Below are positions 24,360 to 63,756 of a DNA stretch of 63,756 nucleotides, in pieces. The DNA is from Nanobdellota archaeon. Its GTDB lineage: Archaea; Nanobdellota; Nanobdellia; Woesearchaeales; JAHIVG01. The number at the start of each line of letters is the position of its first letter. Within the stretch, counting starts at the first letter, position 1. The stretch is from contig JAHIVG010000004.1 of NCBI GenBank assembly GCA_018816705.1, positions 1-63,756 on the forward strand, read 5' to 3'. Position numbers and translations under genes: made by a program. Under the pieces are notes generated by a model. It was given only the letters and a program-made list of their open reading frames with translations. It did not search any database and had not been told where the DNA came from.

Positions 24360-24800
24360 TTATTCCCTCAATATCTTTACCTGCTGGTAGTGAGGATTAG
24401 CCAATAACTCATATATAAGGTTTTTTATCTTGACGCCCTTGGAATCCATCACCCACAGCGTCCCTTTTTCGAGATGTTTTATCATGTCAAGGCCGAGCCT
24501 TTCCCTCAACGTATGCAACAAGGCCTCAGGCTCTGCATCATCCTGCACGATGATCCCTGTCTCACCCTTCCGTAATCTTTTCTCGTCGAGGAACCTGACG
24601 AAGTTCTTGTTGGCGTTCACCAGTACGTCGACATCAGAGACGGCCTGTTTGAATCCTTTCTTGCTGCCGTCGACATCGAACATGTAATAATCATAACGCT
24701 TCAATGCCTCGACCTTATGGCCGAGCTTCCGCATGGTCTGCAGCGCAGTCCTGGCAGTTGTGTCAGGTATCTTCAAGCCGACTGCCATCTCGACCTTCAT
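24360..24800 (-). CDS. purS: PurS (FGAM synthase subunit), tandem-duplicated form (146 aa)
   Basis: Two PurS-like halves. Half 1 is VEMAVGLKIPDTTARTALQTMRKLGH..V..LKRYDYYMFDV..LVNANKNF. Half 2 is ..LLHTLRERLGLD.I..LEKGTLWVMD...LLANPHYQQVKI. 4-nt overlap with purQ. Confidence 0.7.
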   Translation of the reverse strand: MKVEMAVGLKIPDTTARTALQTMRKLGHKVEALKRYDYYMFDVDGSKKGFKQAVSDVDVLVNANKNFVRFLDEKRLRKGETGIIVQDDAEPEALLHTLRERLGLDMIKHLEKGTLWVMDSKGVKIKNLIYELLANPHYQQVKILRE

Positions 24801-29885: not shown

Positions 29886-29990
29886 GATGATGTTCGTGAC
29901 CTTAAAAAATTTTTCCACTCGGACATTATAGCATGATAGCACTCAGAAGGAGCAAAAGTATTAAAAACATGAGTTCACTCCCCCATTGAT

Positions 29991-49513: not shown

Positions 49514-49527
49514 ATAAATTTATAAAT
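49514..49527 (+). promoter_or_regulatory. TATA box for the pilin/vWA operon
   Basis: ATAAATTTATAAAT lies about 55-65 nt upstream of ATG 49581, which has a purine-rich AGAGGGAAAGAG leader. Confidence 0.4.
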
Positions 49528-49580
49528 GATGCCGGCAGAGATAGCTATGAAGTAGTTTGAGGGCTAAAAGAGGGAAAGAG

Positions 49581-49997
49581 ATGCGCATAGGACAAGCTAG
49601 CATGGAATACATCATCGTCATCGGCTTCGCCCTGCTGATGGCCTTCCCGCTCATAATGATCTTCTTCTCCCAGAGCCAGGATGTGACCGATCAGCTCAGC
49701 ATGAACCAGGTGAGGGAGATAGGCCGCAAGGTGATTAACACGGCCGAGAAGGTGTACTACCTCGGCGAGCCCTCGCAGACCATCCTCAAGGTATACCTCC
49801 CTAGCCACGTCGATAGTTTTATCGTGAACGGTACCACCCAGGAGATCGTGTTCAAGGTGAAGATAGAGAGTTCCTTGAGCGATGTCGTGTTCAGGTCAGA
49901 CGTCCCCATATACAATTCCAGTCTGTTGCCGGTCTCAGGCATCAGATTCATCAAGATAAGGACTGTAGATGGCAGGGTGAACATCACAGATGCGTAG
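49581..49997 (+). CDS. Class III signal peptide (archaeal type IV pilin-like) protein 1 (138 aa)
   Basis: MRIG|QASMEYIIVIGFALLMAFPLIMIFF has a short basic leader, Gln at +1, S-x-E-[YF] and a hydrophobic helix. This matches the 'Class III signal peptide' family motif and Methanococcus EppA-type pilins. Confidence 0.75.
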   Translation: MRIGQASMEYIIVIGFALLMAFPLIMIFFSQSQDVTDQLSMNQVREIGRKVINTAEKVYYLGEPSQTILKVYLPSHVDSFIVNGTTQEIVFKVKIESSLSDVVFRSDVPIYNSSLLPVSGIRFIKIRTVDGRVNITDA

Positions 49998-50394
49998 CCA
50001 GATCTCGATGGAGTTCATGGTCCTAATCGCGGTAGGGATACTCAGCTTCATCGTGGTCATCGTCATTGTCGGGGACCAGGTCAAGGAGATGTATGATGAC
50101 AGGGAGTATATAATGACGAGGAACATCGCCATCGAGCTCCAGAACGAGTTCTACCTGGCTGCCCAGGTGCATCACGGCTATGAGCGCACAATTGAGGTTC
50201 CCGATGACGTGGAAGGGATAACTATGGAAATTGCCCTCAACACCGAGACTGCTATCCTGACCGTCAAGTCAGCGAGATACGAGCACGTCATGAACGTCCC
50301 CCATAACATCAAGGGCACCTTGCTGGCAGGAGTCGACAACGTGATAGCCAACAACCACAGCCTGGTGCTGATCAAGCCGGAGCTGATAGGATGA
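49990..50394 (+). CDS. Class III signal peptide (pilin-like) protein 2 (134 aa)
   Basis: MRS|QISMEFMVLIAVGILSFIVVIVIV. 8-nt overlap with the previous gene. Confidence 0.75.
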   Translation: MRSQISMEFMVLIAVGILSFIVVIVIVGDQVKEMYDDREYIMTRNIAIELQNEFYLAAQVHHGYERTIEVPDDVEGITMEIALNTETAILTVKSARYEHVMNVPHNIKGTLLAGVDNVIANNHSLVLIKPELIG

Positions 50395-51509
50395 GCCGCC
50401 GCTCCCAGGTGTGGTACATGGACTTCATTATGTCCTTCTTCATATTCTCTGTCGTGATAGTGATATTCATGCATTTCATCGTCAACAAGAGCGAGGAGAG
50501 CAAGGTGGTCCAGGACCAGCTTCTCACTGACGCGAGGATAATCTCCAATTCACTCATGCTGCCTGGCTACCCGTTGAACTGGGACCACACGAACGTGGAC
50601 AGGATAGGCATAACGGACAAGAACAGCAAGTTCAACAGGACCAAGCTCCTGGAGTTCCAGAAGCTTACCTATTCAGAGATGAGGAAGAGGTTCGACGTCC
50701 CGCACGACTTCATGATCTTTTTCGAGGGCGACAACCGCAAGTCTGTTCCCGTCTTCGGCGTGTGCAGCGTCGGCCACCCGGACATGGACCTCTCTTCGAA
50801 GAGGAAGATTGCGTATTACACCAGGAACATAGAGGATGCCGTCCTCGACCCGGACAGCCATGAAGTGTATGACGACCTGGATGAGATGGGCATCACTGCT
50901 GTTGACACATTCTGCGAAGAAGGCCATACGAAATGCAACGGGCTGACCGCAGAACTTGAGAATGATCTCTTTGACTACGACCTCCTCATCGTGGAGAACG
51001 GAGACCTCGACCTGGTGCCATCATTCCTTTCCTGGGCCGAGAAGGGCCTGCCGACTTTGCTCATCGGCGACTTCACCACTGCCGGGATGATGGGCATGAA
51101 TGTGGACCATACAGAGACTGTTGGCTCGACCGATGCCATCATGGCAAAGGAACTTCCCTTCCTTGACCTAACAGCAGACTCGATGATATCCATGAACCAT
51201 GATTATGTAGTGCTGACGAATAATGATCCGAATGTCATCGTCGAAACTTATGCCACTTCGGACGAGTGGGGCACCGGTATAATGGCCTGGACCTATTCCG
51301 ACGGCACCATCTACCACTTCAGCTCCGCAGACATACTGTCGCCCCCGGACTTCTACGACCAGCTGAAGCTCGGCATCTACGACCTTGCCAATCATAATTG
51401 CTCCAAGCTGGACCTGTCAGCTGTGGATTATAGCAACGTGGTCAAGCTCTCGAGGTTCCTGGTCAAGAAGAACAGGGTCATAAACATGGTGATACTTACA
51501 TGGGACTAG
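50391..51509 (+). CDS. Pilin-like N-terminus protein 3 (372 aa)
   Basis: MSRRS|QVWYMDFIMSFFIFSVVIVIFMHFIV. ATGA overlap with the previous gene. The globular part is unrecognised. Confidence 0.6.
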   Translation: MSRRSQVWYMDFIMSFFIFSVVIVIFMHFIVNKSEESKVVQDQLLTDARIISNSLMLPGYPLNWDHTNVDRIGITDKNSKFNRTKLLEFQKLTYSEMRKRFDVPHDFMIFFEGDNRKSVPVFGVCSVGHPDMDLSSKRKIAYYTRNIEDAVLDPDSHEVYDDLDEMGITAVDTFCEEGHTKCNGLTAELENDLFDYDLLIVENGDLDLVPSFLSWAEKGLPTLLIGDFTTAGMMGMNVDHTETVGSTDAIMAKELPFLDLTADSMISMNHDYVVLTNNDPNVIVETYATSDEWGTGIMAWTYSDGTIYHFSSADILSPPDFYDQLKLGIYDLANHNCSKLDLSAVDYSNVVKLSRFLVKKNRVINMVILTWD

Positions 51510-54500
51510 ACCCTAGAAAAGGATTCGTGTTCACCCTCGACTCGATGCTGGGAGCCACGCTCCTCCTCTTAGGGATTGCGGTGTTCTCGCTCTTCTTCAT
51601 CACCGAGGTCGACACGACACAGCCCACTCTCCTCTCGCAGGACTCCATAGATTTCCTCTCTGAGATGGGCATGGTGGAGATCGATGCTCCTGTCCTGCAC
51701 GACCTGAGGGAAATCGGTCCTTCACTGGACACAGACCTTTCAGTATTGGAGCAGATAGCCCTCTTCTGGGTCAAAGAGGAGCATGACGCAGCCTACGATC
51801 TCTCAAGATATGTCTTCGAAAAGATGATCCCTCCGCAGTACGGCTACAGCATCGTCGTAGGCGGAGAGGAGATATATTCAAGGGCCAAGCCTGGCAACAA
51901 GACCCTGGTCAGCTCCAAGAAGACTGTTACCGGCATCGAGAAGGACAAGGAGGTGGAGAGGTTCTTGACCTATGCCCACCTGACAGGCATGGACACATAC
52001 TTATACGACAGGTATGTCTACTTCGGAGGCTTCACCGGCCAGGGCAACATCACTGTCGCCATCGACCTGCCGGAATACATCAACATCACCAACGTCACCA
52101 TAGAGGGTGCTTTCAGCCACAACTTCTCGCTGTTCATCAACAGCACATGGGCAGGCTACTACAACTTCACAGATGATGACCCCATGAAGGCCGAGACCTT
52201 CTGGGTGAACTACTCATATTTCAACGATTTCGAACGCGGCAACATCACCATGATGCACATCAGGTTCAACACCTCAGACCTTGGTTATATCGGCGGTGGC
52301 TACATCAAGGTAAGGATGAACATGAGCACCAACCAGAGCAACATGACGCCGCAGTTCACCGAGTATCACGGCGAAAGCTACCTGCAGCGCCACTATTTCC
52401 CGCAGGTGGACGGCTTCGTCAACCAGTACGGCTCTTACTACTTCCCACCGAGGCTGCTGAACATCTCAGGCATGCTCCACTACCGCTCTGACATAGGCCA
52501 GGTTGACAATGTCTCCCTCAAGCTCATCATCGGCAACGAGAGCATCTTCAACGACACATCATTCTATGGTGATGAGATCGTCAAGCTCGTACCTGATAAC
52601 TTCTCCGGCCTCAACCTGGCTCTTCTTGCGGGCAAGAACGTGCCCATGCGCTTCGGCTGGATTGGCGCAAACTTCTCCTTCGGCGGCGTGAAGGCAGTGC
52701 TGATCACTGACTTGTCAACCAGTATGGACTATGATATTCCCCAGACCGGAGGCGGTGAGGTAAGGGGATGTGATGATCCTCTGCTGTATGATGACTCGAC
52801 CGAGAGGCTGTCGCTGGCGAAATGCCTGGACAAAGATTTCGTTAACAACTTGCTAGATGAGTCTTTACACTCTAACGTAGGACTTGTATCGTTCTCGACC
52901 AGGTCTGACAGGTTCACCGAGCTCCGGGATGATGCTGCCATGCTTATCGGAGACATTGACGAATACGAGACAATAAGCGCCACCTGCATCGCCTGCGGCA
53001 TATTCAAGGCCATCGAGCTGCTCAAGGAATATGACATCCTTCTCCCAAAACACAGCGACTACAAGTACAACCTGGACTTTATCCTCCCTGGCAATGACCC
53101 TCCAGCAGGATGGAAAGACCTGGCATTCAACGACGATGACTGGCTCACGGGCACTGCTCCATTCGGTTTTGGATTTGATGGGATAAATACTAACATCGAC
53201 CGAACAATGATGAATCCCACTTATGAATACCGACCGATATCCTATTGCTATTATCCTTCAGGGACTGATTGTGCCGGTTTCCTGACATGTTCCCCAGCCC
53301 TTGTGAACACTGATGATGAGATCAACCAATGTTTACTGAACGACACCACTCAAGCTCCTGCAGTCTTCCAGGTCGGTGACACTTCCAGCACTCCCACGAG
53401 CAAGGTCTCTTATCCTGAGGAGACCAAAGTACAGCATGTCAACGACCTGTACAGGTTCCCGGCGTGCGACAGGGTGACAGAATACTGTTTCAGATTCGAC
53501 ACGACGCCAAATGTCTGGCAGCAAAAGCCCCCACCTTCCGCGGATTTCATCATTTTCAGGCCCTTCTCTGACAGGTATGAAAAGGTTTATTCGTTCCAAA
53601 GGAGCCTTAGTAAGGAATTCGACCTCAACACCGGCAGGAAGGTATGCTATAACCCTAACCAAAAGATAAAGATTCTTGATGGCGACGTCATTGGCCTGTT
53701 CACCAACTTCGGCGAGATCTACGACACTGCTCCGAGCGGAGGCACACAGATACGGAAGCAAGGCCTACACGACGAATTACTTTACTCGGATCCCACAAGG
53801 GGCGGGCGGCTGATGGTAGGGATGAAATGCGAGCAGGACAGGCAGCAGCGCAACATAACCGCAGTATTCGGCACAGACGGATTCTCAGACCGTGATGCCA
53901 AGAACTTGCTCACAGAGATAGACATACTTCCGGAAGAGGATGTCACTTACAAGATAACTTATGCAATATATTCCGCTTCTGGAACATTTAGAGGTTGGCG
54001 CGATGTGTGTGATGGATCGCTTGAAAAGGGTGTCGTGACACACCTGGAATGCCTGGCGCCGGCTCTTCCTGATAATGATAGATATTTTTCTTCGATGCTC
54101 AATAAAGCTTACATGCAGCTTGAGATCCTCTTCGACTGCGAGAGCTGCACATCAGGCAAGGTCCACATCGACTATGTGGGCATAACTGCAATCACCTCTT
54201 CTGGCGACCTGTATTTCAGGAAGAAGTTTGATGTCTCAGAGCAATATGATGAGGTCATACTTGAAGTGTTAGACGACGACAGCGCCACGGTATATATTGA
54301 TGGTGTGCAGATTCCCACAAATGACTACCTCGGCAGGGACTGGTTTCACTTCAGGAATCTGACTGGACCACGGATTCCCAGCCCAGGCCGGCACATCCTT
54401 GCCGTAAAGCTTGAGAACCAAGACATCGATTCGATGTCCTTCGATTCCCAGCTCAAGACCCCTGCACCGAGGAACTCTTCGATTCCAAGGGCCATGGTCG

Positions 54501-55591
54501 TCATGAGCGATGGAGTAGCCAATATGTGCTATCCCACTGGTTTGTGCGGCTCTATATTGAATCCTCCAATCATTGACCCTGCACAGCAGGCGAGAGATTT
54601 CGCCTGTGAAGCATTCATCAAGCACGGAATCAGGATATACAGCATCGGATTCGCTGTTAGTGGCAGCGGCCTCACGACGCTTGAGAATATCGCTGCATGC
54701 GACGACGAAAATCATTTCTACCAATCCCAGGACCCTGAGGAGCTCCAGGAGATCTATGACACCCTAGCAGAGGACATCGCCAAGCTAGGCTACGAGGCAC
54801 AGGCCGCATCCATCTTAGGTGATGTGGAGAGCATCCTCTACAACGACTCCTACCTGGAGTTCAACATCTCTACGGGAAGCGATCCCATATCCACAGGACT
54901 GATCCCCCTCACCGTCCAGACCCCTCCATTCGGCAACAACATCTCGGAACTGAACATCTCGTTGAGGGACGGCATGATCATCCAGGATGCCAGGATAACA
55001 TCATACTCCGGCGACAAGTGGACCAGGCTCGTCTGGATCAACAACTCTCTCGAGAACCTTACAGTCTTCAACCTGACTGACTTCGGAAGGGACTATGTCC
55101 TGCTCGGAGACCCGTTCATCATCGAGTTCCCCCCGGATGCCCTCAGGGGTGGAGGCAACATGATACACTCAGACACAGGCATCACGCCGACTGGACTCAC
55201 TAACGGTTCGCCCAGCAACCGCCTCATATTCACAACCCTAATCTCGCCCAGGTCAAGGAGCCTCGGCCTCGGAGATTATGAGGAAGGGTGCGGATGGAAC
55301 ATCGAATTCGAAGACGACCTGAAGAAGCTCATGCTCACCCCTCAACATTACGCAGGGCCGCTTGTATGCGCATACAACTCCACAAACCACACCCTGCAAG
55401 ACAACGCCTATGACGGGAACAATTCCATGCATATCGCGCTGCACGACCTCCTGAGCAGGCTGGATTTCGACCAGGACGGACGCCTTGACGTGGAGATCGG
55501 CGAGCCCAACCTTCTGATCAAGACCGCGACCACTGACAGGATACCCAACCTCTGGGGGCCGACGCTGGTGGAGGTGAAGATCTGGCAATGA
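51500..55591 (+). CDS. Giant pilin-anchored vWA-domain protein, paralog A (1363 aa)
   Basis: N-terminus MGLDPRKG|FVFTLDSMLGATLLLLGIAVFSLFF. vWA MIDAS AVLITDLSTSM (D404), ..VGLVSFS.., ..TCIACGI.. then, about 480 aa later, ..MVVMSDGVAN (D1004), ..IYSIGFA.. and ..LQEIYDTLAEDI. About 18 N-x-S/T sequons in residues 180-400. C-terminal DFDQDGRLD. Confidence 0.8.
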   Translation: MGLDPRKGFVFTLDSMLGATLLLLGIAVFSLFFITEVDTTQPTLLSQDSIDFLSEMGMVEIDAPVLHDLREIGPSLDTDLSVLEQIALFWVKEEHDAAYDLSRYVFEKMIPPQYGYSIVVGGEEIYSRAKPGNKTLVSSKKTVTGIEKDKEVERFLTYAHLTGMDTYLYDRYVYFGGFTGQGNITVAIDLPEYINITNVTIEGAFSHNFSLFINSTWAGYYNFTDDDPMKAETFWVNYSYFNDFERGNITMMHIRFNTSDLGYIGGGYIKVRMNMSTNQSNMTPQFTEYHGESYLQRHYFPQVDGFVNQYGSYYFPPRLLNISGMLHYRSDIGQVDNVSLKLIIGNESIFNDTSFYGDEIVKLVPDNFSGLNLALLAGKNVPMRFGWIGANFSFGGVKAVLITDLSTSMDYDIPQTGGGEVRGCDDPLLYDDSTERLSLAKCLDKDFVNNLLDESLHSNVGLVSFSTRSDRFTELRDDAAMLIGDIDEYETISATCIACGIFKAIELLKEYDILLPKHSDYKYNLDFILPGNDPPAGWKDLAFNDDDWLTGTAPFGFGFDGINTNIDRTMMNPTYEYRPISYCYYPSGTDCAGFLTCSPALVNTDDEINQCLLNDTTQAPAVFQVGDTSSTPTSKVSYPEETKVQHVNDLYRFPACDRVTEYCFRFDTTPNVWQQKPPPSADFIIFRPFSDRYEKVYSFQRSLSKEFDLNTGRKVCYNPNQKIKILDGDVIGLFTNFGEIYDTAPSGGTQIRKQGLHDELLYSDPTRGGRLMVGMKCEQDRQQRNITAVFGTDGFSDRDAKNLLTEIDILPEEDVTYKITYAIYSASGTFRGWRDVCDGSLEKGVVTHLECLAPALPDNDRYFSSMLNKAYMQLEILFDCESCTSGKVHIDYVGITAITSSGDLYFRKKFDVSEQYDEVILEVLDDDSATVYIDGVQIPTNDYLGRDWFHFRNLTGPRIPSPGRHILAVKLENQDIDSMSFDSQLKTPAPRNSSIPRAMVVMSDGVANMCYPTGLCGSILNPPIIDPAQQARDFACEAFIKHGIRIYSIGFAVSGSGLTTLENIAACDDENHFYQSQDPEELQEIYDTLAEDIAKLGYEAQAASILGDVESILYNDSYLEFNISTGSDPISTGLIPLTVQTPPFGNNISELNISLRDGMIIQDARITSYSGDKWTRLVWINNSLENLTVFNLTDFGRDYVLLGDPFIIEFPPDALRGGGNMIHSDTGITPTGLTNGSPSNRLIFTTLISPRSRSLGLGDYEEGCGWNIEFEDDLKKLMLTPQHYAGPLVCAYNSTNHTLQDNAYDGNNSMHIALHDLLSRLDFDQDGRLDVEIGEPNLLIKTATTDRIPNLWGPTLVEVKIWQ

Positions 55592-58500
55592 GAAGGAGGA
55601 AGGGGATATTGTTCACCATTGATGCAGTCCTGGGAGCGACGCTGCTGCTCTTAGGCATATTCATGTACTCGCTCTTCTTCGTGACAGAGGAGGAGACCAC
55701 CCAGTCCGCCTACTTCTCCCGCGACGCCGTCGACTTCCTGGCGCAGGTGAGGATGGACGAGCTGGACTTCCGTTTCCTGCACGACCTTAACAGGATCTCC
55801 TTGTCTATCGATCCTGACATCAGCGTCCTCGAGCAGATGGCTCTCTTATGGGTCAAGGGGGAGTACGAGGCATCGCAGCTGCTGTGCAACTATACTTTCC
55901 TTGAGCTCATACCCGAGCAGTACGGCTTCGAGATAAGGGTCGGCAATGACGTCGTGTGCAACCGCTACAAACCGGGTAGCGAGACCGTTATCACCTCCAA
56001 GAGGAGCATCTCCGGCATCGAGAAGTCCCAGCAGACAGAGAGGTTCCTGTCGTATGCGCATCTTACCGGCATGGACAACTTCCTGATGGACTTCTACACC
56101 TATTTCCAGGGGTTCACCGGCCAGGGCAACATCACCGTGCTCATGGAGGTCCCTGAGTTCATCTCCATAAGGAACGTGATCATCGAGGGCTCTTTCAGCG
56201 ACAATTTCGAGTTCCATATAAACGGGAACGGGTCAGGCAACTTCACGACCAACAGGACGAATCCTCTCGGTGCTGAGACCTTCATCATCGACCCCGTGCA
56301 TTTCAGCAATTTCGGTGGGGAGAACAGGACCTCGTTCTCGATAAGGTTCAACTCGAGCGAAGGGCAGCTCGGATACATCGGCGGCGGTTATATCCGGGTC
56401 ACGGCCAACATCAGCGCCAACAACACCCACCTGAAGGAGGGCATGAGGCAGTTCACGCATATAGCGAATGACACGTTGATAACAAGATATTACCTTCCGC
56501 AGGTCGAGGGGGTGATCAATCTCTATGGGTCTTATTACTTCCCCCCTGATATCTCGAACTTATCTGCTAGCCTGCACTACAAGTCAGACATCGGCCAGTT
56601 AGACGATGTTTATCTCCAACTGGTCTTGGCGAACCAGACGATCTTCTTCGACGAGAACTTCACAGGAGAGGAGACAATCGACCTCGACCCCGAGCGTTTC
56701 TCAGCGCTCAATCTCAGCAAGCTTGCTGGCAAGAACGTCCCCATGCGCTTCGGCTGGACAGACATCGCACCTTATGGGGGAGGAGGTGTGGATGCCATAC
56801 TCATCACTGATATCTCAGGAAGCATGGCATGGAACATAACTCCTGGAGATGGTTGGTTACGTACGGATGGAGAGACATGGGGGAACGACTGCGATAATAC
56901 CAAGATGTACACGAGCAACAGGACTATGCGCCTTGCCTTGGCAAAATGCCTTGACAAGAGATTCGTCGATATAATCCTCGAAGACCTCAGCCCGAGCAGG
57001 ATGGGCTTGGTATTTTTCTACCATACACTCATTCCCTTATACACAAATGTTGTCCCTTTAAAGGATTATACAAGCAGGTCGTACTTGCATAATAAAATCG
57101 ATGCAATTGACAATCCTGTAGGGAACACTTGTGTCTCATGCGGCATCTATAAGGCGATGGAACTGCTTTTCAAGCCTGGAACGCCAATCCCTGCTGAAAG
57201 CCAATGGAAATACACTCTTGAATATCCCGATGCTGCACCTCCAGGAAACTGGGATGCGCTGGAATATGATGATGGATCATGGCCGCAAGGGCAGATGCCT
57301 ATCGGCTTCGGTCCTGATTCGAACACTGTCATCGACCCGCTGTACATGGGCGGTGATCTGATGAGGGATTCTGTAGATGTGATTCCGAGTTACAGCCTGT
57401 TCAGCGGGGAATCCTGCTGGGGTGATGGCTCCATGCTTCAGAATCTCGACGGTAACTTCCTTTGCCTCCAGAACACCAGCCCATCGCTGAATTGGGTTCA
57501 GATGGTCGGTGATGTATCCCAGCAGGCTAACCGGCTCGGCATATACGATATTGAGACGCTAGTGCAGGACTCGAATGATATGTACAAGATCCCCTATTAT
57601 TGCGGTCAGTTGGATGACTTCAGGTTCTTCTTCAATGTCGTGCCTGGTGTCTGGTCAGACAGGGTCTTCGTGGAATTCCTTGTGCTGCGGCCGTTCTACG
57701 ATCCAGGCCTGAAGTATGAGGTGAAGCACTCTTTCAGGAAGCGCCTGACGACCTATGAGGCCGTTGGCTCTCCTGAGGTTGGAAATAATTCGGAATATCT
57801 CGGCCCGCCGAGCGCTCGGACTTTCGTGCCTAACGGATTCCCACTGACCGACATCCAGGAAGGCGATGTCCTCGGCCTGTACACCTCATTTCCCCCACTC
57901 AAGGTCAGGAAACCAGGCACCGGAAGGCTCCTCTATGAATCCGGGTATGAGGACATCATTGATGACAGCCAGAGCCAGGAAATGAGACAGTTGACGATAG
58001 GCGCGAAATGCAACATGTCGATAAGACCCACCATATCTACGACCTTCAAGTCCGAACCATTTACTGATATAGAGGAGTATGATTATATCGAGGCCGAGAT
58101 TAATTTTATGCCAGAGGAGGACCTATGGTATGATATCTTCTTCTTCAATACCTCAGACCTTGAATGGGTATGGGCATGTTCAGGCCATGTCGAAGCTACA
58201 GGTGAGATTTTCGAGGAGGACTGTAGGCTGAACGTCAATCCACCCTCAGATTTCTTCAACGCCGAGTCGAGAATCAGCATAAAGCTCGATTTCATCTTTG
58301 ATTCATATTGCAGGAGCGGCCCCTGTACAGCCCATCAGGTAAAATTGGATGAGATTGATTTTGTAGGTGTAGAATCGAATGGGACGATATATCTGAGGAA
58401 GACCTTCAACGTCAACCAGTCGCAGTTCGCGGATCCCACTTTACGATTGAGATCAGATGACCGCGCTGATATGTACATCAATGGGCAACGGATCGACGGC

Positions 58501-59796
58501 GGCTGGACGCCTTATCCAGGACTGGAATGGGATGAAGAGATAAACTTATTTGAAGACCTGTTCCACCCGGGCGAGAACATGATTTCTGCGATTGTCTATA
58601 ACCAGGATGCATCATCATTGGATTTCGACGCCGAGATCCATTTCGGGGATTACCCTCAGGACAACAAGAGGAGGGCTATGCTGGTGATGAGCGATGGAGA
58701 GGCAAACACATGTTTGCCGGGTGGTTTTGGGACCTGCATTAACGGATTTTCTGCCGGGAATGAGACCATAAACCTGTCATGCAGGGCTCATGATCAATAT
58801 GGGATAGATGTCTACACCATAGGTTTCGCCCTGGATCCTTCACGTGATCCTGAAGCGATTGACATCCTCAATCAATCTGCCTGCTGCGATAATTGCTCAC
58901 ATTTCTATTCGAGCCAGTCCGCTGAAGAGCTGGTTCAGATCTATCAGGAAATCGCCCAAGAGTTACGGGGCCTTGAATATATCTCGCAGTCAGCCCTCAT
59001 CGAGGGCAACATCTTCAGCATCCTCTACAACGACTCCTATCTCGAGGTAAACTCCACCGTGCCCGAAGCCTTCACGATCAAGGGCCAGATACCTATCACC
59101 GTCCAATCACCGAGGTTCGGGAACAATGACACCGAGTTCACCGCGTCCTTCGGCCCCAACATCCATATCCTAGACGCGCGGCTCACGTCCTACTCCGCAG
59201 ACAGGTGGACAGACCTGGCATGGGTCTACAACCAGTACGGGAACCACACCATATTCGACCTCTCGAATTTCAGCATGAGATACCAGCTGATGGGCGACCC
59301 ATACATAATAGAGATAAACCCCGCCTATCTCGCTCCCGGCAACAACACCTTCCGCATAGAGACAGCCTACAGCCCCACCAACAGGAGCGGGGGCTCTCCG
59401 GACAACTCGCTCATATACACCACCCTGGTCTCACCTAATGCCATGACAGAGGGCCTCGGAGGATACTTCGAGGGGTGCAACTGGACATTGCAGTTCGAGG
59501 ACCTGACGAACTCGAGCATCCTCGTCCCGTCAACCTATGACGGGAAGCATAGATGCGCCTATTCTGCCCTCAATCACTCTGAAGGCAACTGTGTCCTCTA
59601 CAATGATTGTTCCTACGACCGTAACAATTCCATAGACAACGCCATGCACACCCTGCTTGAGCGGCTCGACTTCGACAAGGACGGCCTCATAGATATGGAC
59701 CTCGACCAGGCCAGCATCCAGGTCGAGACGGCCACCGTGCCCGACATCCCCTCGCTCCTCGGGCCGGAGATGCTTGAGGTGAGACTATGGCAATGA
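55588..59796 (+). CDS. Giant pilin-anchored vWA-domain protein, paralog B (1402 aa)
   Basis: N-terminus MRRRKG|ILFTIDAVLGATLLLLGIFMYSLFF. AILITDISGSM (D408) ... AMLVMSDGEAN (D1036), ..VYTIGFA.. and ..LVQIYQEIAQEL. Collinear with paralog A throughout. ATGA overlap with A. Confidence 0.8.
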   Translation: MRRRKGILFTIDAVLGATLLLLGIFMYSLFFVTEEETTQSAYFSRDAVDFLAQVRMDELDFRFLHDLNRISLSIDPDISVLEQMALLWVKGEYEASQLLCNYTFLELIPEQYGFEIRVGNDVVCNRYKPGSETVITSKRSISGIEKSQQTERFLSYAHLTGMDNFLMDFYTYFQGFTGQGNITVLMEVPEFISIRNVIIEGSFSDNFEFHINGNGSGNFTTNRTNPLGAETFIIDPVHFSNFGGENRTSFSIRFNSSEGQLGYIGGGYIRVTANISANNTHLKEGMRQFTHIANDTLITRYYLPQVEGVINLYGSYYFPPDISNLSASLHYKSDIGQLDDVYLQLVLANQTIFFDENFTGEETIDLDPERFSALNLSKLAGKNVPMRFGWTDIAPYGGGGVDAILITDISGSMAWNITPGDGWLRTDGETWGNDCDNTKMYTSNRTMRLALAKCLDKRFVDIILEDLSPSRMGLVFFYHTLIPLYTNVVPLKDYTSRSYLHNKIDAIDNPVGNTCVSCGIYKAMELLFKPGTPIPAESQWKYTLEYPDAAPPGNWDALEYDDGSWPQGQMPIGFGPDSNTVIDPLYMGGDLMRDSVDVIPSYSLFSGESCWGDGSMLQNLDGNFLCLQNTSPSLNWVQMVGDVSQQANRLGIYDIETLVQDSNDMYKIPYYCGQLDDFRFFFNVVPGVWSDRVFVEFLVLRPFYDPGLKYEVKHSFRKRLTTYEAVGSPEVGNNSEYLGPPSARTFVPNGFPLTDIQEGDVLGLYTSFPPLKVRKPGTGRLLYESGYEDIIDDSQSQEMRQLTIGAKCNMSIRPTISTTFKSEPFTDIEEYDYIEAEINFMPEEDLWYDIFFFNTSDLEWVWACSGHVEATGEIFEEDCRLNVNPPSDFFNAESRISIKLDFIFDSYCRSGPCTAHQVKLDEIDFVGVESNGTIYLRKTFNVNQSQFADPTLRLRSDDRADMYINGQRIDGGWTPYPGLEWDEEINLFEDLFHPGENMISAIVYNQDASSLDFDAEIHFGDYPQDNKRRAMLVMSDGEANTCLPGGFGTCINGFSAGNETINLSCRAHDQYGIDVYTIGFALDPSRDPEAIDILNQSACCDNCSHFYSSQSAEELVQIYQEIAQELRGLEYISQSALIEGNIFSILYNDSYLEVNSTVPEAFTIKGQIPITVQSPRFGNNDTEFTASFGPNIHILDARLTSYSADRWTDLAWVYNQYGNHTIFDLSNFSMRYQLMGDPYIIEINPAYLAPGNNTFRIETAYSPTNRSGGSPDNSLIYTTLVSPNAMTEGLGGYFEGCNWTLQFEDLTNSSILVPSTYDGKHRCAYSALNHSEGNCVLYNDCSYDRNNSIDNAMHTLLERLDFDKDGLIDMDLDQASIQVETATVPDIPSLLGPEMLEVRLWQ

Positions 59797-62507
59797 GACG
59801 CGGCGTGTTCTTCATAATAGACGCCTTCCTGGCTGTCATGCTCCTGTTCGTGGCTGTCATAGTCATCTCCACCTATTTCGTGACAGAGGAGGAGACCACC
59901 CAATCGGAGTTCCTCAGCAGGGATTCGGTGGACCTGCTGGCGGAGGTCAAGATAAAGGACCTCGACCAGGACTCAATCAATCAGATAACCGCCCTCGGTT
60001 CGGCCTACAAGATGAACTACACCGTTCTCGAGCAGATAGCCCTCTTCTGGATCAAGAATGAGACAGACGCTGCGAGGGAGCTGTCAAGGATCATCTTCGG
60101 CAACTACATCCCCGAAAGGTACGGCTACAGCGTCATGGTCGGGGGCCAGATGGTCCATTCGAGGAACATCTCCAAGCAGACCGCTGTCAGGAGCGCCTCG
60201 CATATGGTCTCGGGCATCGAGCAGGACAAGCCGGTTGAGGGCTACACGGCAAGGGTGTACCTGACCACCTCGCCGTACAGGAAGGTCTCTTCTTACATCT
60301 ATTTCGGCGGCTTCGTCGGAGAGGGCAACCTCAGCGCAGAGATAATGCTCCCGGATAACTACACCAACATGATCGAGGTCTACTTCGAGGGCGTGCTGAG
60401 CACCGACGCGCTGCTTTCCGTCAACGACCAGTACGCCCAGACCCTGCACAGGAAGGCCCTGTCAGACATGGATGCTGACAACTACACGCTGTCCACTGCA
60501 GTGCACTCGCTGTTCCAGCCCGGGAGGAACACCATCAACATAACCTTCAACGTCACCCAGGCGAACCAGTCGCTCGGCTTCATCGGCGGCGGCTACCTCA
60601 GGGTTGACACCAACACCACAGCCCAGTTCGATCCCAGGAGGTATGACATCGACAATTCCACGCAGAGGCAGTATTTCACGGGAATCGACGGCCTGATCAA
60701 CATCTATGATTCGATATATGTCGGAGGTGACCTGAAGCAGATGAGCCTCTACCTCCATTATGATTCCAATTTCAGCAGCTACAACTCGAGCAACTTCTCC
60801 ATCTACCTGAATGTCGGCAACGTGACCGTCTTCATGGACAACAACGTTACGGGTGAGGAGTACGTCAACATCTCAGATTCCCAGCTCAGCAGCAAGCTCA
60901 ACTACTCTGCGTTGAGCGGCCAGACCATACCCATTAGGATGGGGTCCAGCGGCATCAACTACTCTGAATACGACGCTGGCAACAATGATGTCATCCTGGT
61001 CACAGACCTTTCCGGCAGCATGCAGTGGAGGTTGACTTCAAACGTGAACGGTAACATTGTCAATGATTGTTCCGACCCCCAGATCTATGATTCCGACACG
61101 AGAAGGATAAGCTTAGCCAAGTGCCTTGATAAGGACTTCGTCAGCCTCATCCTTAACCTTAGCGGAAACCGCGTCGGGCTCGTGGGATTCAACATCGACG
61201 CTTACACATGGGATAGCCTGACGACTGACGTGAGTTCCCTCATAAGCTCCATCAACAACTACCCGGACAGCCCCTCCGATGGCACCTGCATCTGCTGTGC
61301 GATCAATAGGGCATACAACATACTCAATTCTGAGAGCAACGCTTCAAGGAACAAGTTCATAATCGTCATGAGCGATGGCATCCCCGGCAGGAGGTGCATC
61401 GGCTCTGGGGCATGCTCAACCAGCTTCAAGGGAACAAGCACCTCCGGAAGCTTCTGCTGCAGCGGCAACTCTGGAGATTGCAACAATCCTTCGTGCAACG
61501 GACCGAGCAAGAACGCGAACTGGAGCTCATGGAGAGCCCACGACGATCTGAACGCCACGGTCCATGCCATAGGCTTCGGCCCCGTATCGAGCTGCTACCT
61601 CGCAAATTTCACATTGAACAACGTGGCTGAGTCTGGGGACGGTGAGTATTATGCGAGCAGCAATGCCACCGAGCTGCAGGACATCTACATGGGCCTGGCA
61701 AATAACATATTGACGTATACATACAAGGCCCAGGCGATAATCCTGACAGGCAACCTCATCAAGTCCAGGCTCTTCCCGGACTCGCATTTCGAGCTGAACT
61801 TCACGCCCTATGTGAACATCGAATCAGCCGGTGATATACCCCTCTCGGTCGAGCTCCCGCCTTTCAACAACAATTTCACCAACGGCACCTTCCGTATCCC
61901 GCCCAACATCACCCTCGCTGAGGTGCTCGTCACCTCCTACTCAGGCGACAGGTGGACCAATGACGTGATCGTGTTCGGTGATACATCGACAGTAGTGCCC
62001 TACAACCTCTCTTCTTATGGCTCTAACTACCGTCTGCTAGGTGATCCGTTCATCGTCCAGATCCCGCCCAACTATTTCGAGTCTGGCACCAACGTGACTG
62101 TGAGGATTGACACCGGGCTCTCGCCGGACAATGTCTCTGGCGGCTCACCTGATAACAGGCTGATCTTTACCGTTCTGGCGAGGACCAATGCCGAGTCAGA
62201 GGGAGTCGGTGCATTGGCAGATGGCTGCACATGGGATATCCGCTTTGAGGATGGCTCCGCCCTCAATGCTACTATACCAGCCGACTATTCCGGTAACAAT
62301 CAGTGCAGGTTCTTCAACGCCAGCTATGACCGCGATGATGCCATAGAGAGCGCTGCCTTCATCCTGTTCAGCCAGCTGGACCTGGACGGCGACGGCCTCC
62401 TCGACATAAGGTTCGACAAGCAGTCCCTCAACACGAACGTGCTGGTAACTTCAGGTGTGCCGTATCTCTGGGGTCCCACACTTGTGGAGGTGAGGGTATG
62501 GCAGTAG
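59787..62507 (+). CDS. Pilin-anchored vWA-domain protein, paralog C (906 aa; uninterrupted vWA)
   Basis: N-terminus MAMRRG|VFFIIDAFLAVMLLFVAVIVISTYF. VILVTDLSGSM (D407) ... FIIVMSDGIPG (D530), ..VHAIGFG.. and ..LQDIYMGLANNI. A Cys-rich loop follows the SDG. N- and C-terminal modules are shared with A and B. Confidence 0.8.
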   Translation: MAMRRGVFFIIDAFLAVMLLFVAVIVISTYFVTEEETTQSEFLSRDSVDLLAEVKIKDLDQDSINQITALGSAYKMNYTVLEQIALFWIKNETDAARELSRIIFGNYIPERYGYSVMVGGQMVHSRNISKQTAVRSASHMVSGIEQDKPVEGYTARVYLTTSPYRKVSSYIYFGGFVGEGNLSAEIMLPDNYTNMIEVYFEGVLSTDALLSVNDQYAQTLHRKALSDMDADNYTLSTAVHSLFQPGRNTINITFNVTQANQSLGFIGGGYLRVDTNTTAQFDPRRYDIDNSTQRQYFTGIDGLINIYDSIYVGGDLKQMSLYLHYDSNFSSYNSSNFSIYLNVGNVTVFMDNNVTGEEYVNISDSQLSSKLNYSALSGQTIPIRMGSSGINYSEYDAGNNDVILVTDLSGSMQWRLTSNVNGNIVNDCSDPQIYDSDTRRISLAKCLDKDFVSLILNLSGNRVGLVGFNIDAYTWDSLTTDVSSLISSINNYPDSPSDGTCICCAINRAYNILNSESNASRNKFIIVMSDGIPGRRCIGSGACSTSFKGTSTSGSFCCSGNSGDCNNPSCNGPSKNANWSSWRAHDDLNATVHAIGFGPVSSCYLANFTLNNVAESGDGEYYASSNATELQDIYMGLANNILTYTYKAQAIILTGNLIKSRLFPDSHFELNFTPYVNIESAGDIPLSVELPPFNNNFTNGTFRIPPNITLAEVLVTSYSGDRWTNDVIVFGDTSTVVPYNLSSYGSNYRLLGDPFIVQIPPNYFESGTNVTVRIDTGLSPDNVSGGSPDNRLIFTVLARTNAESEGVGALADGCTWDIRFEDGSALNATIPADYSGNNQCRFFNASYDRDDAIESAAFILFSQLDLDGDGLLDIRFDKQSLNTNVLVTSGVPYLWGPTLVEVRVWQ

Positions 62508-63454
62508 GCAGGCGGGGTGTGATCTTCACGTTCATATCCATAACTGTGCTGTTCTTCACGATAACCTTCATCTACAACACTTCGCAGTACAGGCTGAGGG
62601 ACAACATCTTCCTTGCAGAGTCCAGGATAATCGCCCTGGACCGCTTCATCTCTGATACAGAATCAGATCTCGAGCGTGCGCTTTACATCGCTGCCTTCAG
62701 GACGCTTCTTGCCATGAACCCGCAGGATGCCGCTGACGATTACATCACAGACATCGACGATAAGTTCCACGAGATGATGATATACGGCAATCTCGACGGG
62801 CAGCCGAGGGCTCTCATAAACGACTCGAACATACTGTTGTGGACCGAGAAGATGGAGGCGCAGGGCTCGAAACTGAGCATCCTCTTCAGCCTGACACCGC
62901 TCAACATCGATGTGCATATGGTCTCACCCTGGGATGTCGAGGTAGAGCTGGACTCCACGCTTGAGGTCGAGGACATAGGCGGGGCTGCCAAGTGGGTGAG
63001 GAACATCACGACCAGGACCAAGGTCAACATCATAAATTTCCCCGACCCTGTGTACGGTCACGGCGGCGCCCAGCCGAACATCATCAAGGAGTCCGTGTAT
63101 ACTATCGAGGAGATCCGGACGAATGACGATAAGCTCAAGGAGCATTGGGAATCCCAAAGATACTTGCCCTGCCCCGGCGCTCCGGACTACATCCAGCGCC
63201 TTGGCGGCCAGCTCGGGGGGAAATCCGAGTACGGCATCGAGAGCCTCGCTTTTCCGAGCAATTACCTTCCGGGCCCAGACATCAAGAACAAGAGCATGGT
63301 CGACCATATATACTGGAGCTCTGCCAACCCAATCCACTGCCCTGTGGACGTCATACCCAGCCTCAGGATGGACAACACCGAGATAACAGTAGGTGTGGTG
63401 GGGCGATGGGACTTCTACGACGTCAACGTCGACGACGCCAGGTGCAGCACTTAA
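62498..63454 (+). CDS. Pilin-like N-terminus protein (318 aa), last gene of the operon
   Basis: MAVGRRG|VIFTFISITVLFFTITFIY. 10-nt overlap with paralog C. The globular part is unrecognised. Confidence 0.6.
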   Translation: MAVGRRGVIFTFISITVLFFTITFIYNTSQYRLRDNIFLAESRIIALDRFISDTESDLERALYIAAFRTLLAMNPQDAADDYITDIDDKFHEMMIYGNLDGQPRALINDSNILLWTEKMEAQGSKLSILFSLTPLNIDVHMVSPWDVEVELDSTLEVEDIGGAAKWVRNITTRTKVNIINFPDPVYGHGGAQPNIIKESVYTIEEIRTNDDKLKEHWESQRYLPCPGAPDYIQRLGGQLGGKSEYGIESLAFPSNYLPGPDIKNKSMVDHIYWSSANPIHCPVDVIPSLRMDNTEITVGVVGRWDFYDVNVDDARCST

Positions 63455-63621
63455 GCTTGGTCCTTCATCAATGAGTACAACACTTTACGTGCACCCGTTA
63501 CTTCTTTATCAGGCACTGACTATATGAGGGTTGGTGTGGGCATTGGGTTGGTAGCATATGGGGACATGTAGTTTTGCGAGGCATGCGGTGGTTCTGGTGG
63601 ACATCAATATGGGACATGTCA

Positions 63622-63693
63622 TAGAAATCCTAAAATCCGACTACCCAGCCCTGAAGGACTGGGCTTGCGTCGGATTTTCGAGACGGATTTCTA
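63622..63693. repeat. Compound inverted repeat / extended hairpin downstream of the operon
   Basis: TAGAAATCC-T-AAAATCCGAC ... GTCGGATTTT-CGAGAC-GGATTTCTA has perfect 9- and 10-nt arms. An inner CCCAG/CTGGG stem is also present. Confidence 0.5.
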
Positions 63694-63756
63694 GGACACA
63701 AAAAAAGCAGAAAACCATAATACTAACAAACGCATTCATCCTCACCCTGAAGGGCA

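Follow-up and report, generated by a model that had tools for sequence, protein, structure and literature searches.

The window analysed here, a 63,756-nucleotide stretch of DNA from a Nanobdellota archaeon, carries a chain of overlapping genes whose products combine pilin-like N-termini with very large vWA proteins. This raises the question of whether the locus encodes a pilus-associated fiber or tip complex with vWA adhesins built onto pilin-type N-termini, as proposed in an earlier sequence-only reading, or a system of another kind.

Organization of the operon

Seven ORFs on the + strand (O1~O7), read from the sequence, form one co-directional chain at 49581-63454, with successive overlaps of 8, 4, 10, 4, 10 and 10 nt. 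The sequence-only reading had counted eight, but the segment 3′ of O7 (63455-63756) holds no further comparable ORF. Its other descriptions of the chain agree with our analysis, which recovered the 4-10 nt overlaps, the TATA-like box, the ORF sizes of 1363, 1402 and 906 aa, and every N-terminal string and internal motif that it quoted. Two elements precede the chain, the first of which lies ~55 nt 5′ of the ATG of O1:

49514-49527, + strand: A/T-rich TATA-like element ataaatttataaat, putative promoter, read directly from the sequence
Just 5′ of the O1 ATG, + strand: purine-rich SD-like stretch agagggaaagag, read directly from the sequence

With more than 150 homologs of O6 in the databases, and 906 clusters at 50% identity that the vWA family profile retrieves at E ≤ 1e-30, the chain consists of genuine genes rather than chance ORFs.

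The +1 Gln proteins O1~O3

The first three genes encode proteins with Gln at position +1:

49581-49997, + strand: O1, small pilin-like protein, 138 aa, MRIG|QASME (+1 Gln, +5 Glu; family N-terminal logo)
49990-50394, + strand: O2, small pilin-like protein, 134 aa, MRS|QISMEFMVL (QxSxExxxL; family N-terminal logo)
50391-51509, + strand: O3 (long form), 372 aa, MSRRS|QVWYMD (+1 Gln, +3 Trp, +6 Asp; family logo)

O1 and O2 are homologous over their full length (hhalign 97.4%), and the N-terminal logos of both families show 100% conservation of +1 Gln and +5 Glu, with Lys/Arg at -2 and Ala/Gly/Ser at -1 in the O1 family. O3 consists of an N-terminal helix and a globular domain without recognised fold; in its family +1 Gln, +3 Trp and +6 Asp are conserved at 100%, 86% and 94%, respectively, and its gene invariably sits between O2 and the vWA gene in related loci. 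The N-terminal 29 residues of O3 align in register with the N-terminus of the vWA family. The three proteins share a Methanococcus EppA-type N-terminus, in which a basic leader precedes Gln at +1 and an acidic residue follows at +5 (Glu) or +6 (Asp). The features of the family logos match those reported for EppA substrates among the pilins of M. maripaludis, in which the Epd minor pilins (EpdA-C, 130-156 aa) resemble O1 and O2 in the short leader, the Gln at +1 and the Glu at +5 (PMC3875500).

The assignment of class III N-termini made from sequence alone stands at the level of family-wide motifs and of the O1 and O2 families, in which PF04021 Class_IIIsignal matches 14/37 and 6/37 members, respectively, in addition to DUF7266 in 12/37 O2 members. 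For the individual proteins of the window it is weaker: O1 (E 0.027) and O2 (E 0.034) reach 14.5-14.8 bits against a gathering threshold of 23.7 bits, and the curated pilin models match none of the N-termini of O4~O7, which counts against a pilus. A custom HMM built from the pilins that adjoin TadC in relatives gives O1 a score of 91.6 bits.

Giant vWA paralogs O4~O6

In line with the sequence-only reading, the three central genes encode collinear paralogs; their identity is 37-42%:

51500-55591, + strand: O4, vWA paralog, 1363 aa (Pfam VWA match in two pieces, residues 445-511 and 991-1087)
51500-51589, + strand: O4 class III-like N-terminus
51590-52684, + strand: O4 N-module
52685-53029, + strand: O4 vWA N-half, DxSxS at 52709-52723
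53030-54472, + strand: O4 nested vWA insertion, residues 511-991
54473-54799, + strand: O4 vWA C-half, MIDAS Asp at 54509-54511
54800-55588, + strand: O4 C-module
55588-59796, + strand: O5, vWA paralog, 1402 aa, architecture as O4, DxSxS at 56809-56823, MIDAS Asp at 58693-58695
57169-58656, + strand: O5 nested vWA insertion, residues 528-1023
59787-62507, + strand: O6, core vWA protein and conserved family ortholog, 906 aa (homologs, AF2 model)
59787-59882, + strand: O6 N-terminal helix
59883-60971, + strand: O6 N-module
60972-61721, + strand: O6 vWA, uninterrupted, DxSxS at 61005-61019, Asp at 61374-61376
61722-62504, + strand: O6 C-module

The MIDAS, earlier described as intact in all three, could be assigned to D404/S406/S408/T495/D1004 of O4, D408/S410/S412/T514/D1036 of O5 and D407/S409/S411/T500/D530 of O6, and is invariant in 66 members of the vWA family. 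The proposed order of N-module, vWA domain and C-module applies to O6, whereas the vWA domain of O4 and O5 is split by an insertion of ~480 aa; the C-module beyond the vWA domain measures ~260 aa rather than the ~330 aa suggested before. O6 shares 56-57% identity with Nanoarchaeota proteins. Proteins O4~O7 begin with a pilin-like N-terminus, KKG|F-x-F-[ST]; in the logo of the vWA family, -2 is Lys/Arg in 100% and -1 Gly in 88%, followed by +3 Phe, +4 Ser/Thr and +6 Asp (93%), and then by ~20 hydrophobic residues. In the AF2 model of O6 (mean pLDDT 86), residues 4-32 form the N-terminal helix, followed by a helical bundle and β domains; this predicted structure has no obvious canonical pilin fold, which speaks against a pilus subunit.

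Structural similarity search placed Streptococcus sanguinis PilB, a minor pilin of modular build with a vWA module, closest to O6 among solved structures (Foldseek E 3.5e-11), and the PilB profile match spans the whole O6 vWA domain (E 3.2e-10), although the sequence identity of PilB to the vWA family is only ~15%. This type IV pilin (PDB 7b7p/7ba2) is proposed to act in a PilABC tip complex that primes assembly and mediates adhesion (PMC8179133, PMC9934059). Both PilB and O4~O6 fuse a pilin-type N-terminus to a vWA domain with a MIDAS, and share an operon with other minor pilin or pilin-like genes. However, PilB is bacterial, is ~460 aa long and has E5 and a canonical pilin module, whereas the archaeal O4~O6 (906-1402 aa) have Asp at +6, a KKG|F leader, an extra N-module of ~360 aa and the C-module, in addition to the insertion in O4 and O5.

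The top Foldseek and HMM matches in the PDB after PilB are the pilus-tip adhesins Mfa5, PitA, SpaC and RrgA. This ranking bears on whether the proteins belong to a BatA/BatB-type or MoxR-associated vWA system, intracellular or membrane-bound, acting in aerotolerance or as a chaperone and unrelated to pili. BatB is also among the Foldseek matches, and the O6 vWA domain has weak NCBIfam matches of this type (E about 1e-6, far under the cut-off). These matches span only the generic vWA fold, and the pilus adhesins outrank them in both searches. Moreover, no related locus contains a MoxR or DUF58 partner, and N-glycosylation sequons reach ~3 times the composition-based expectation in O4~O6 (34 in O6), which indicates an extracellular location. 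We thus regard such a system as hardly credible.

Nested insertion in O4 and O5

The two ends of the O4 insertion form a conserved β-sandwich (W..DDxW..G..FGFG ... YFRKxF..DD.A.VY.NG), which is split by a ~330-aa module of low conservation. The AF2 model of the O4 insertion is confident at both ends only, and Foldseek gave weak matches to GH2-type jelly rolls. O4 and O5 differ most in the insertion, with 31% identity compared to 47-52% for the flanking modules. Insertion hot spots are present in the vWA domain across the family.

The last gene product O7

The chain ends with a further pilin-like protein:

62498-63454, + strand: O7, 318 aa, MAVGRRG|VIFTF, pilin-like N-terminus (family logo)

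Neither +5 nor +6 of O7 is acidic, and its family logo shows KKG, +3 Phe and +4 Thr with no conserved acidic residue. In almost every locus its gene comes after the vWA gene. The similarity between O7 and the vWA family is confined to the N-terminal segment, which can be aligned in register across O3, O7 and the vWA proteins.

A cassette linked to pilus machinery in DPANN archaea

In 60 of the 62 testable related loci, the vWA gene has O2, O3 and O7 on its flanks, and all related loci with the O1-O2-O3-vWA-O7 cassette are from DPANN archaea; the synteny check suggested by the sequence-only reading thus revealed a widespread DPANN locus that is not peculiar to the source organism. In 31 of the 35 related loci with ≥7 kb on both flanks, the cassette adjoins the gene of an archaeal ATPase of the T2SSE type, a pair of T2SSF/TadC-like genes and small pilin genes in tandem, typically in the order O1-O2-O3-vWA-O7-X434-ATPase-TadC-TadC-pilin, where X434 is a family of ~434-aa proteins with a winged helix and a coiled coil, defined from locus L001. 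In the PDB this ATPase matches A. fulgidus GspE2 best, then FlaI and CpaF, and its score against the FlaI model (260 bits) is far under the cut-off of 550; these matches place it among the archaeal type IV filament ATPases. In the 63.7-kb contig, custom HMMs and Pfam scans detected neither an ATPase or platform protein, as had been noted before, nor a major pilin, and an A24/prepilin peptidase was likewise missing, as noted before, and the ATPase is unlinked in the remaining 4/35 relatives; both observations weigh against a pilus.

These gaps, together with the unmatched N-termini of O4~O7, would fit ordinary membrane-anchored adhesins with an uncleaved signal anchor, whose proximity to pilus genes would mean no more than shared regulation of surface structures. 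Yet the strict conservation at -2, -1, +3, +4 and +6 is superfluous for a simple anchor, the cassette is co-operonic with small Q-type pilin-like proteins through translational overlaps, and the gene order with ATPase and TadC genes is kept across at least five DPANN phyla, making plain anchoring quite improbable.

A second alternative, a pseudopilus or bindosome-like display system, accepts the type IV machinery and the class III N-termini and has them build a short envelope-spanning stub that anchors the vWA proteins and presents them at the cell surface, with no long tip-adhesin fiber, modelled on the bindosome proposed for Sulfolobus sugar-binding proteins. In archaea, some large substrates other than pilins are known to carry class III signal peptides (bindosome; 10.64898/2026.04.22.720090), the vWA proteins are far bigger than known pilins, and the synteny fits a stub equally well. 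On the other hand, relatives have 1-4 tandem small pilin genes beside the platform genes, which suggests a polymerised filament, and PilB is a genuine pilus subunit. A stub is possible, if unlikely.

Relation to known type IV filaments

Archaeal type IV filament System 1 (Epd) is reported to occur in DPANN (PMC3875500; 10.64898/2026.04.22.720090). As in the related DPANN loci, the Epd platform protein is split over two genes; however, the Epd locus has its own EppA peptidase, its 74-aa major pilin is encoded elsewhere, and no giant vWA subunit has been described for it. The DPANN ATPase may fall in System 1 or 4A.

Bacterial sets such as FimU-PilVWX with PilY1/PilC, GspHIJK and TadE/F/G resemble the cassette in co-encoding four to five low-abundance pilin-like proteins and a vWA adhesin, which presumably prime assembly and come to lie at the tip. 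A GspK-type cap lacks the acidic residue, as does O7. PilY1, which carries a β-propeller at its C-terminus, does not belong to the pilins; no PilY1 structure is among the top 50 Foldseek matches, and no match to TadG or the Tad Pfam/NCBIfam models was found. Any homology to these complexes beyond the vWA fold would be putative.

According to the main text of a recent preprint, archaeal type IV filament loci often encode an adhesin, including some Nanoarchaeota/DPANN loci with two platform genes, and “PilY-like” or large adhesin-like proteins occur in subsystems 2 and 4A/4B; that main text mentions no vWA domain, no class III N-terminus on the adhesin and no O1-O2-O3-vWA-O7 cassette (Sivabalasarma & Albers 2026). 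The literature searched contains no paper naming or characterising the cassette, consistent with the sequence-only reading, to which no characterised archaeal system of this composition was known; some overlap with the preprint is possible.

Proposed assembly of the filament tip

Synteny, N-terminal motifs and the PilB match support the fiber or tip complex first suggested from sequence. On the gene families, motifs, synteny and fold described above, we propose, with a probability of roughly 0.6, that O1~O7 are the pilin/adhesin module of a DPANN-conserved type IV filament (Tad/Epd-like pilus) locus, forming a minor-pilin priming/tip complex on which giant vWA adhesins are displayed interchangeably. 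To our knowledge, a pilin of 900-1400 aa would far exceed any characterised one, which counts against the proposal.

The pilin-type N-terminal helix would insert all seven products in the membrane, and the short basic leader would presumably be cleaved by a prepilin peptidase encoded elsewhere; as a further point against the proposal, a single peptidase could process both the +1 Gln and the KKG|F N-termini of the operon only if its specificity were broad, and two peptidases would otherwise be required. The N-terminal helices may then bring O1, O2, O3, one vWA protein (a presumed stoichiometry) and O7 together as a priming/tip complex, beneath which the ATPase and the two-part platform would polymerise the small major pilin. 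O7 is the candidate top subunit because it lacks an acidic residue at +5/+6, as in GspK-type caps. The N-glycosylated vWA protein would probably be the adhesin at the distal end, exposing its MIDAS metal site to a putative ligand. The Nanobdellota genome carries three alternative vWA subunits, two with the fast-evolving ~480-aa β-sandwich module, and such alternative subunits and insertions would give different binding specificities for host cells or surfaces. As very large sticky proteins with pilin-type N-termini, the giant vWA proteins are good candidates for how tiny symbiotic DPANN cells grip their hosts or surfaces.

Proteins of the vWA family are already deposited in databases under “VWA domain-containing protein”.

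Operon organization and genomic surroundings

The operon consists of seven co-directional genes and not eight, as counted in the sequence-only reading.

Genes of the operon (coordinates, strand, name, length and type of product)
49581-49997, +, O1, 138 aa, small pilin-like protein
49990-50394, +, O2, 134 aa, small pilin-like protein
50391-51509, +, O3, 372 aa, medium pilin-like protein
51500-55591, +, O4, 1363 aa, giant vWA protein
55588-59796, +, O5, 1402 aa, giant vWA protein
59787-62507, +, O6, 906 aa, giant vWA protein
62498-63454, +, O7, 318 aa, pilin-like protein without the acidic residue

Neighboring ORFs from O1 to O7 overlap by 8, 4, 10, 4, 10 and 10 nt. The single chain joined by overlaps of 4-10 nt thus holds at all six junctions, and the N-terminal strings and internal motifs quoted in the sequence-only reading were all found in the ORFs. 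Upstream of O1, the sequence displays the A/T-rich TATA-like element expected from that reading (49514-49527) together with a purine-rich stretch, and the next gene upstream encodes S-adenosylhomocysteine hydrolase. The contig, which the window spans in full, ends 300 nt past O7; in place of an eighth gene, there is a short open frame that runs off the contig end and has no similarity to the gene following O7 in the closest relative.

The PurL encoded on the same contig shares 66-69% identity with proteins of Nanoarchaeota MAGs and about 60% with those of Woesearchaeota, and O6 matches entries of Nanoarchaeota MAGs named “vWA domain-containing protein” at 56-57% identity. From these identities, we assign the window to a DPANN archaeon of the Nanoarchaeota/Woesearchaeota lineage.

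N-terminal features of the pilin-like proteins

All seven proteins start with a short basic leader that ends in a small residue, namely MRIG↓Q in O1, MRS↓Q in O2, MSRRS↓Q in O3, RKG↓F in O4, RRKG↓I in O5, RRG↓V in O6 and GRRG↓V in O7, where the arrow marks the putative cleavage site. The leader precedes a hydrophobic helix with an acidic residue near position +5; the acidic residue is missing in O7 only. N-terminal logos derived from family alignments of related loci revealed that the anchored sequences have Lys/Arg at position -2 in 79-100% and Gly/Ala/Ser at -1 in 100% of members, with a median leader of 5-10 residues. The O1 and O2 families combine Lys/Arg at -2 and Ala/Gly/Ser at -1 with an invariant Gln at +1 (100%), Ser/Ala at +3 and an invariant Glu at +5 (100%), followed by about 20 hydrophobic residues, and the O3 family has Gln at +1, Trp at +3 and Asp at +6 (94%). 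The vWA family is characterized by Lys/Arg at -3/-2, Gly at -1 (88%), Phe/Tyr/Ile/Val at +1, Phe at +3, Ser/Thr at +4 and Asp at +6 (93%). The O7 family shares the KKG leader end, Phe at +3 and Thr at +4, and is a cap-like exception in lacking the acidic residue.

The proposed class III signal was found by PF04021 (Class_IIIsignal) at E<0.01 in relatives of the two small proteins (14 of 37 O1-family and 6 of 37 O2-family members), whereas O1 and O2 of the window scored below the gathering threshold (E 0.027-0.034; 14.5-14.8 bits against 23.7). Scanning the 40-residue N-termini at E≤10 yielded these sub-threshold matches alone, leaving O3-O7 unmatched. In addition, 12 of the 37 O2-family members match DUF7266, for which our literature search returned nothing.

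O1 and O2 are homologs that align from end to end (97.4% probability in hhalign), and O1 scores 91.6 bits against an HMM of the small pilins encoded beside the platform genes in relatives. O3, O7 and the vWA family have only the N-terminal 26-29 residues in common, which align in register. A search of PDB sequences with the O1-family profile gave no pilin match, and a word-indexed homolog search with the O7-family profile retrieved eight proteins, all unnamed or annotated as “hypothetical protein”. Screening the entire window for N-termini of this kind with a long hydrophobic stretch behind them returned the seven operon proteins as the only real genes; two further ORFs were discarded as internal starts inside the genes of an ABC permease and a Na+/H+ exchanger.

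We also observed that one operon carries two types of cleavage site: A/G/S↓Q...E in O1-O3 and KKG↓F.F(S/T).D in O4-O7. In Methanococcus maripaludis, two such leader types are processed by different peptidases, EppA and FlaK. EppA was not found in the window or the locus flanks, and a crude screen for GxGD plus multiple transmembrane segments gave no obvious A24 peptidase candidate in the 10-kb flanks of 86 loci.

Structure of the giant vWA proteins

O4, O5 and O6 are collinear paralogs of 37-42% identity. The intact MIDAS reported from the sequence was confirmed in each of them with all five residues (DxSxS, Thr and Asp), which vary little or not at all among 66 homologs. Pfam VWA likewise bore out the predicted domain, with scores above threshold for O4 (30.5 bits, in a match split between residues 445-511 and 991-1087) and O6 (32.4 bits; VWA_2, 38.7 bits) and slightly below the cut-off of 23.8 bits for O5 (22.7 bits). 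Pfam and NCBIfam scans of the seven operon proteins gave vWA matches only. The profile of the vWA family retrieves 906 clusters (at 50% identity) with E≤1e-30.

The AlphaFold2 model of O6 (mean pLDDT of 86) begins with an N-terminal helix (residues 4-32) and a helical bundle (residues 39-107), continues with β-rich domains that extend to about residue 395 and with a vWA fold (about residues 400-645), and ends in a β-rich C-terminal module of about 260 residues with one helix. Structural similarity search using Foldseek revealed that the predicted fold matches vWA structures, the best PDB hit being PilB of Streptococcus sanguinis, a modular vWA type IV minor pilin (E 3.5e-11), followed by inter-alpha-inhibitor heavy chain 1 and then the pilus-tip adhesins PitA, SpaC, Mfa5 and RrgA. 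Profile-based searching of PDB sequences gave the same picture. The global match between O6 and PilB covers 357-426 columns, but with an RMSD of 9-12 Å.

Each of O4-O6 contains 34-37 N-x-S/T sequons, corresponding to 2.5-3.75 per 100 residues and about three times the expectation from composition, compared to 0-0.5 per 100 residues in cytoplasmic proteins of the same contig. This richness fits extracellular, heavily N-glycosylated proteins.

A nested insertion in the vWA domain

Alignment to the 66-member family profile showed that O4 and O5 correspond to O6 plus an insertion of about 480 residues, located between helix α3 and strand β4 of the vWA domain (residues 511-991 of O4 and 528-1023 of O5). 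The simple succession of N-module, vWA and C-module previously drawn for O4 and O5 had missed this insertion. Across the vWA family, insertions concentrate at a main hot spot at about profile position 497, with inserts of 110-700 residues, and at a second (about 525-540) and a third one (about 400-415); in O6 numbering, the hot spots fall within about residues 400-545 (window about 60984-61420).

The ends of the O4/O5 insert are conserved in many homologs, some of which possess them alone as a module of about 165 residues, and its middle is variable. Conserved ends around a variable middle point to a nested architecture, in which the vWA domain holds a β-sandwich that in turn holds a variable module. 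The insert is also the most divergent part between O4 and O5, with 31% identity compared to 47-52% in the flanking modules. The O4 insertion has no Pfam match, and its AlphaFold2 model (pLDDT of 56.8 overall) is confident at the ends only; Foldseek returned weak matches (E about 1e-3) to GH2-type sugar-binding jelly rolls. Given these weak matches and the poor model, the insert is tentatively assigned as a probable galactose-binding-like β-sandwich with a nested module.

The hot-spot inserts of the family are unrelated modules, for which precomputed Pfam annotation gives CUB, BNR-like and GH115_C-type domains in some members. This variety suggests that the vWA domain may serve as a scaffold for the swapping of binding modules.

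Conserved gene context in DPANN archaea

We consider the gene context of the vWA homologs to be the decisive evidence on the nature of the operon. Contigs with O6 homologs display the same order of a small, a small, a medium and a vWA gene, then a gene of roughly 310-410 aa. The usual neighbors, either downstream or divergently upstream, are the genes of a protein of about 380-430 aa, of a T2SSE ATPase and of two T2SSF platform proteins. A scan of GTDB species representatives matched at least 280 stretches; among the matches listed, 80 loci belong nearly all to the Woese-, Pace-, Aenigmat-, Alti-, Parv- and Nanoarchaeia lineages. Using our own HMMs, we detected O2, O3 and O7 together with the vWA gene at 60 of the 62 testable loci. 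Moreover, where each flank measures at least 7 kb, the T2SSE ATPase and two T2SSF genes adjoin the cassette in 31 of 35 loci.

The typical order reads O1-O2-O3-vWA-O7-X434-ATPase-TadC-TadC-pilin(1-4). The ATPase is nearest to GspE2 of A. fulgidus, FlaI and CpaF. The small proteins encoded downstream of TadC in relatives start with KGQAAMEFLMTYGWAIL and have no PF04021 match; by motif, size and position, they are candidates for the major pilin. A single vWA gene is present in most genomes; two occur in a few, and the window has three. The linkage to a type IV filament ATPase and platform is seen in relatives and not in the window, where our HMMs detected no ATPase, TadC, X434 or extra pilin. 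Pfam scans of the window's other genes gave housekeeping functions only, with no A24 peptidase among them, in agreement with the earlier statement that ATPase, platform and prepilin peptidase are absent from the window.

X434 is an unnamed family of about 434 aa defined from one related locus, L001. This gene (13723-15027 of L001, with equivalents of about 380-430 aa in 54 related loci) always lies directly upstream of the pilus ATPase, and its product has a winged-helix-like N-terminal region and a long coiled coil, with no Pfam family. It is possibly a cytoplasmic accessory factor or regulator of the pilus machine.

Very large secreted-type proteins are also encoded directly upstream of the cassette in some relatives: a 1293-aa NosD/β-helix protein in L001 (38-3919) and a 1104-aa F5/8 type C (discoidin) protein in the Altiarchaeia locus L005 (5337-8651). 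In two Altiarchaeota loci (L018 and L063), the vWA and O7-like genes are duplicated as a pair, vWA-O7-vWA-O7, and the O7 homologs are enlarged to 620-690 aa. The paired duplication hints that the two products may work as a unit.

We read the operon as the predicted pilin and adhesin half of a type IV filament system that is conserved in DPANN archaea. That the hydrophobic N-termini are uncleaved membrane anchors, with the linkage to pilus genes reflecting mere co-regulation, would accord with the unmatched N-termini of O4-O7; in view of the strictly conserved positions around the putative cleavage site of the vWA family and of the conserved order with ATPase and TadC genes, we consider this quite improbable.

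Comparison with known systems

O1 and O2 resemble the EppA-processed pilins of M. maripaludis, which have a leader of 5-13 residues ending in Gly, Gln at +1 and Glu at +5; the minor pilins EpdA-C of this species are 130-156 aa long (PMC3875500). The Epd-like System 1 combines such pilins with two platform genes, a clade 1 ATPase and a 9-TM EppA peptidase. Of these features, the Q/E pilins are seen here and the two platform genes in relatives; the DPANN ATPase is placed only as archaeal GspE2/FlaI/CpaF-like.

Three other systems do not fit, and two of them, the archaellum and a Bat/MoxR-type system, were rejected. The archaellum comprises a FlaI-equivalog ATPase with FlaH, FlaJ, FlaF/G and archaellins; with the FlaI model, which has a cut-off of 550 bits, the linked ATPase reaches 252-260 bits, and no FlaH or FlaF/G is present in the loci. 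PilY1/PilC is a non-pilin with an N-terminal vWA domain and a C-terminal β-propeller. By contrast, the present proteins have a pilin-type N-terminus and a C-module of β-strands and one helix, and the top 50 Foldseek matches include no PilY1 structure. A Bat/MoxR-type vWA system would account for the vWA domain, but none of the loci encodes a MoxR/DUF58 partner.

Clusters of Tad-like ATPase and platform genes have been described before in DPANN archaea, but their matching pilins were not identified (PMC4858521; PMC9563170). The first left the cognate pilins of nanoarchaeal ATPases unidentified and discussed vWA proteins as cytoplasmic ArnB-type regulators (Makarova et al. 2016, PMC4858521), and the second, a Nanohaloarchaeota study of 2022, described DPANN Tad-like clusters with “no pilins annotated” (PMC9563170). 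A 2026 preprint classifying archaeal type IV filaments (10.64898/2026.04.22.720090) assigns to DPANN both System 1 (Epd-like, with two platform genes) and subsystem 4A, and it refers to “PilY-like” adhesins; its main text contains no mention of vWA domains or the cassette. Our search of the literature on DPANN together with pilins, vWA and class III signal peptides found no published description of the cassette, in line with the sequence-only reading, which knew of no characterized archaeal system of such composition. Within the searchable literature, the cassette is thus unnamed and uncharacterized. Bacteria already provide examples of its principle, namely a modular vWA pilin that belongs to a tip complex of minor pilins.

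A proposed tip complex for host recognition

By analogy with GspHIJK, FimU-PilVWX-PilY1 and especially PilABC of S. sanguinis (PMC9934059), we propose a five-subunit tip complex. After cleavage of their leaders, the pilin-type subunits O1, O2, O3, a vWA protein and O7 would assemble into a priming or tip complex, beneath which small Q-type pilins would polymerize into the pilus. Adhesion to a ligand would be the role of the glycosylated vWA/MIDAS module, and O7, devoid of the acidic residue, could form the cap. The three paralogs with their fast-evolving nested inserts may provide alternative specificities. The model builds on the observed families, motifs, fold, gene order and signs of an extracellular location; leader cleavage, filament assembly, tip position and the ligand are its predicted elements.

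DPANN archaea are mostly obligate episymbionts, and little is known of how they locate their hosts and stay attached to them. The interest of the cassette lies in its candidates for both the pilins and a host-binding adhesin of these archaea: a putative full set of two small Epd-like pilins, three more subunits of pilin type and, within these, a MIDAS-bearing adhesin. The “modular pilin” principle, established for PilB and PilC of S. sanguinis, would thereby be extended to archaea and to subunits of three times the size, and the insertion hot spots and three paralogs offer concrete handles on host specificity. Tentatively, with a probability of about 0.35, we read the cassette as the long-missing pilin set and host-recognition device of the DPANN type IV pilus, a five-family tip complex whose adhesin is a class III-signal subunit of 0.8-1.7 kaa with a vWA scaffold bearing hot spots for fast-evolving modules; by swapping the tip subunit, genomes with three paralogs could then change the host or surface they recognize or widen its range. 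A bindosome-like pseudopilus that displays the vWA proteins at the cell surface would employ the same filament machinery and class III N-termini and fits the gene context equally well; as candidate major pilins lie beside TadC in relatives and the best structural match of O6 is a pilus subunit, we regard it as a less likely possibility.

Other features of the window

Three further features of the window were noted. At 2-10256 (+), six co-directional large ORFs encode proteins of 806, 402, 367, 663, 649 and 444 aa with no Pfam match and, for one only, weak coiled-coil-type PADLOC matches. The ORFs at 4898-6889, 6976-8925 and 8922-10256 appear paralog-like, with an N-terminal region similar by eye. 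All six look cytoplasmic, since they have neither signal sequence nor sequon enrichment. At 10549-15733 and 24797-27813, a MoaA-MoaC fusion, MoaB-like, MoeA, a molybdate/tungstate-type ABC transporter, PurL and PurQ represent cofactor and purine biosynthesis beyond what is usual for a reduced DPANN genome. Finally, a Mur-ligase-like protein with Mur_ligase_M and Mur_ligase_C domains is encoded at 28734-29942 (-) on this archaeal contig.
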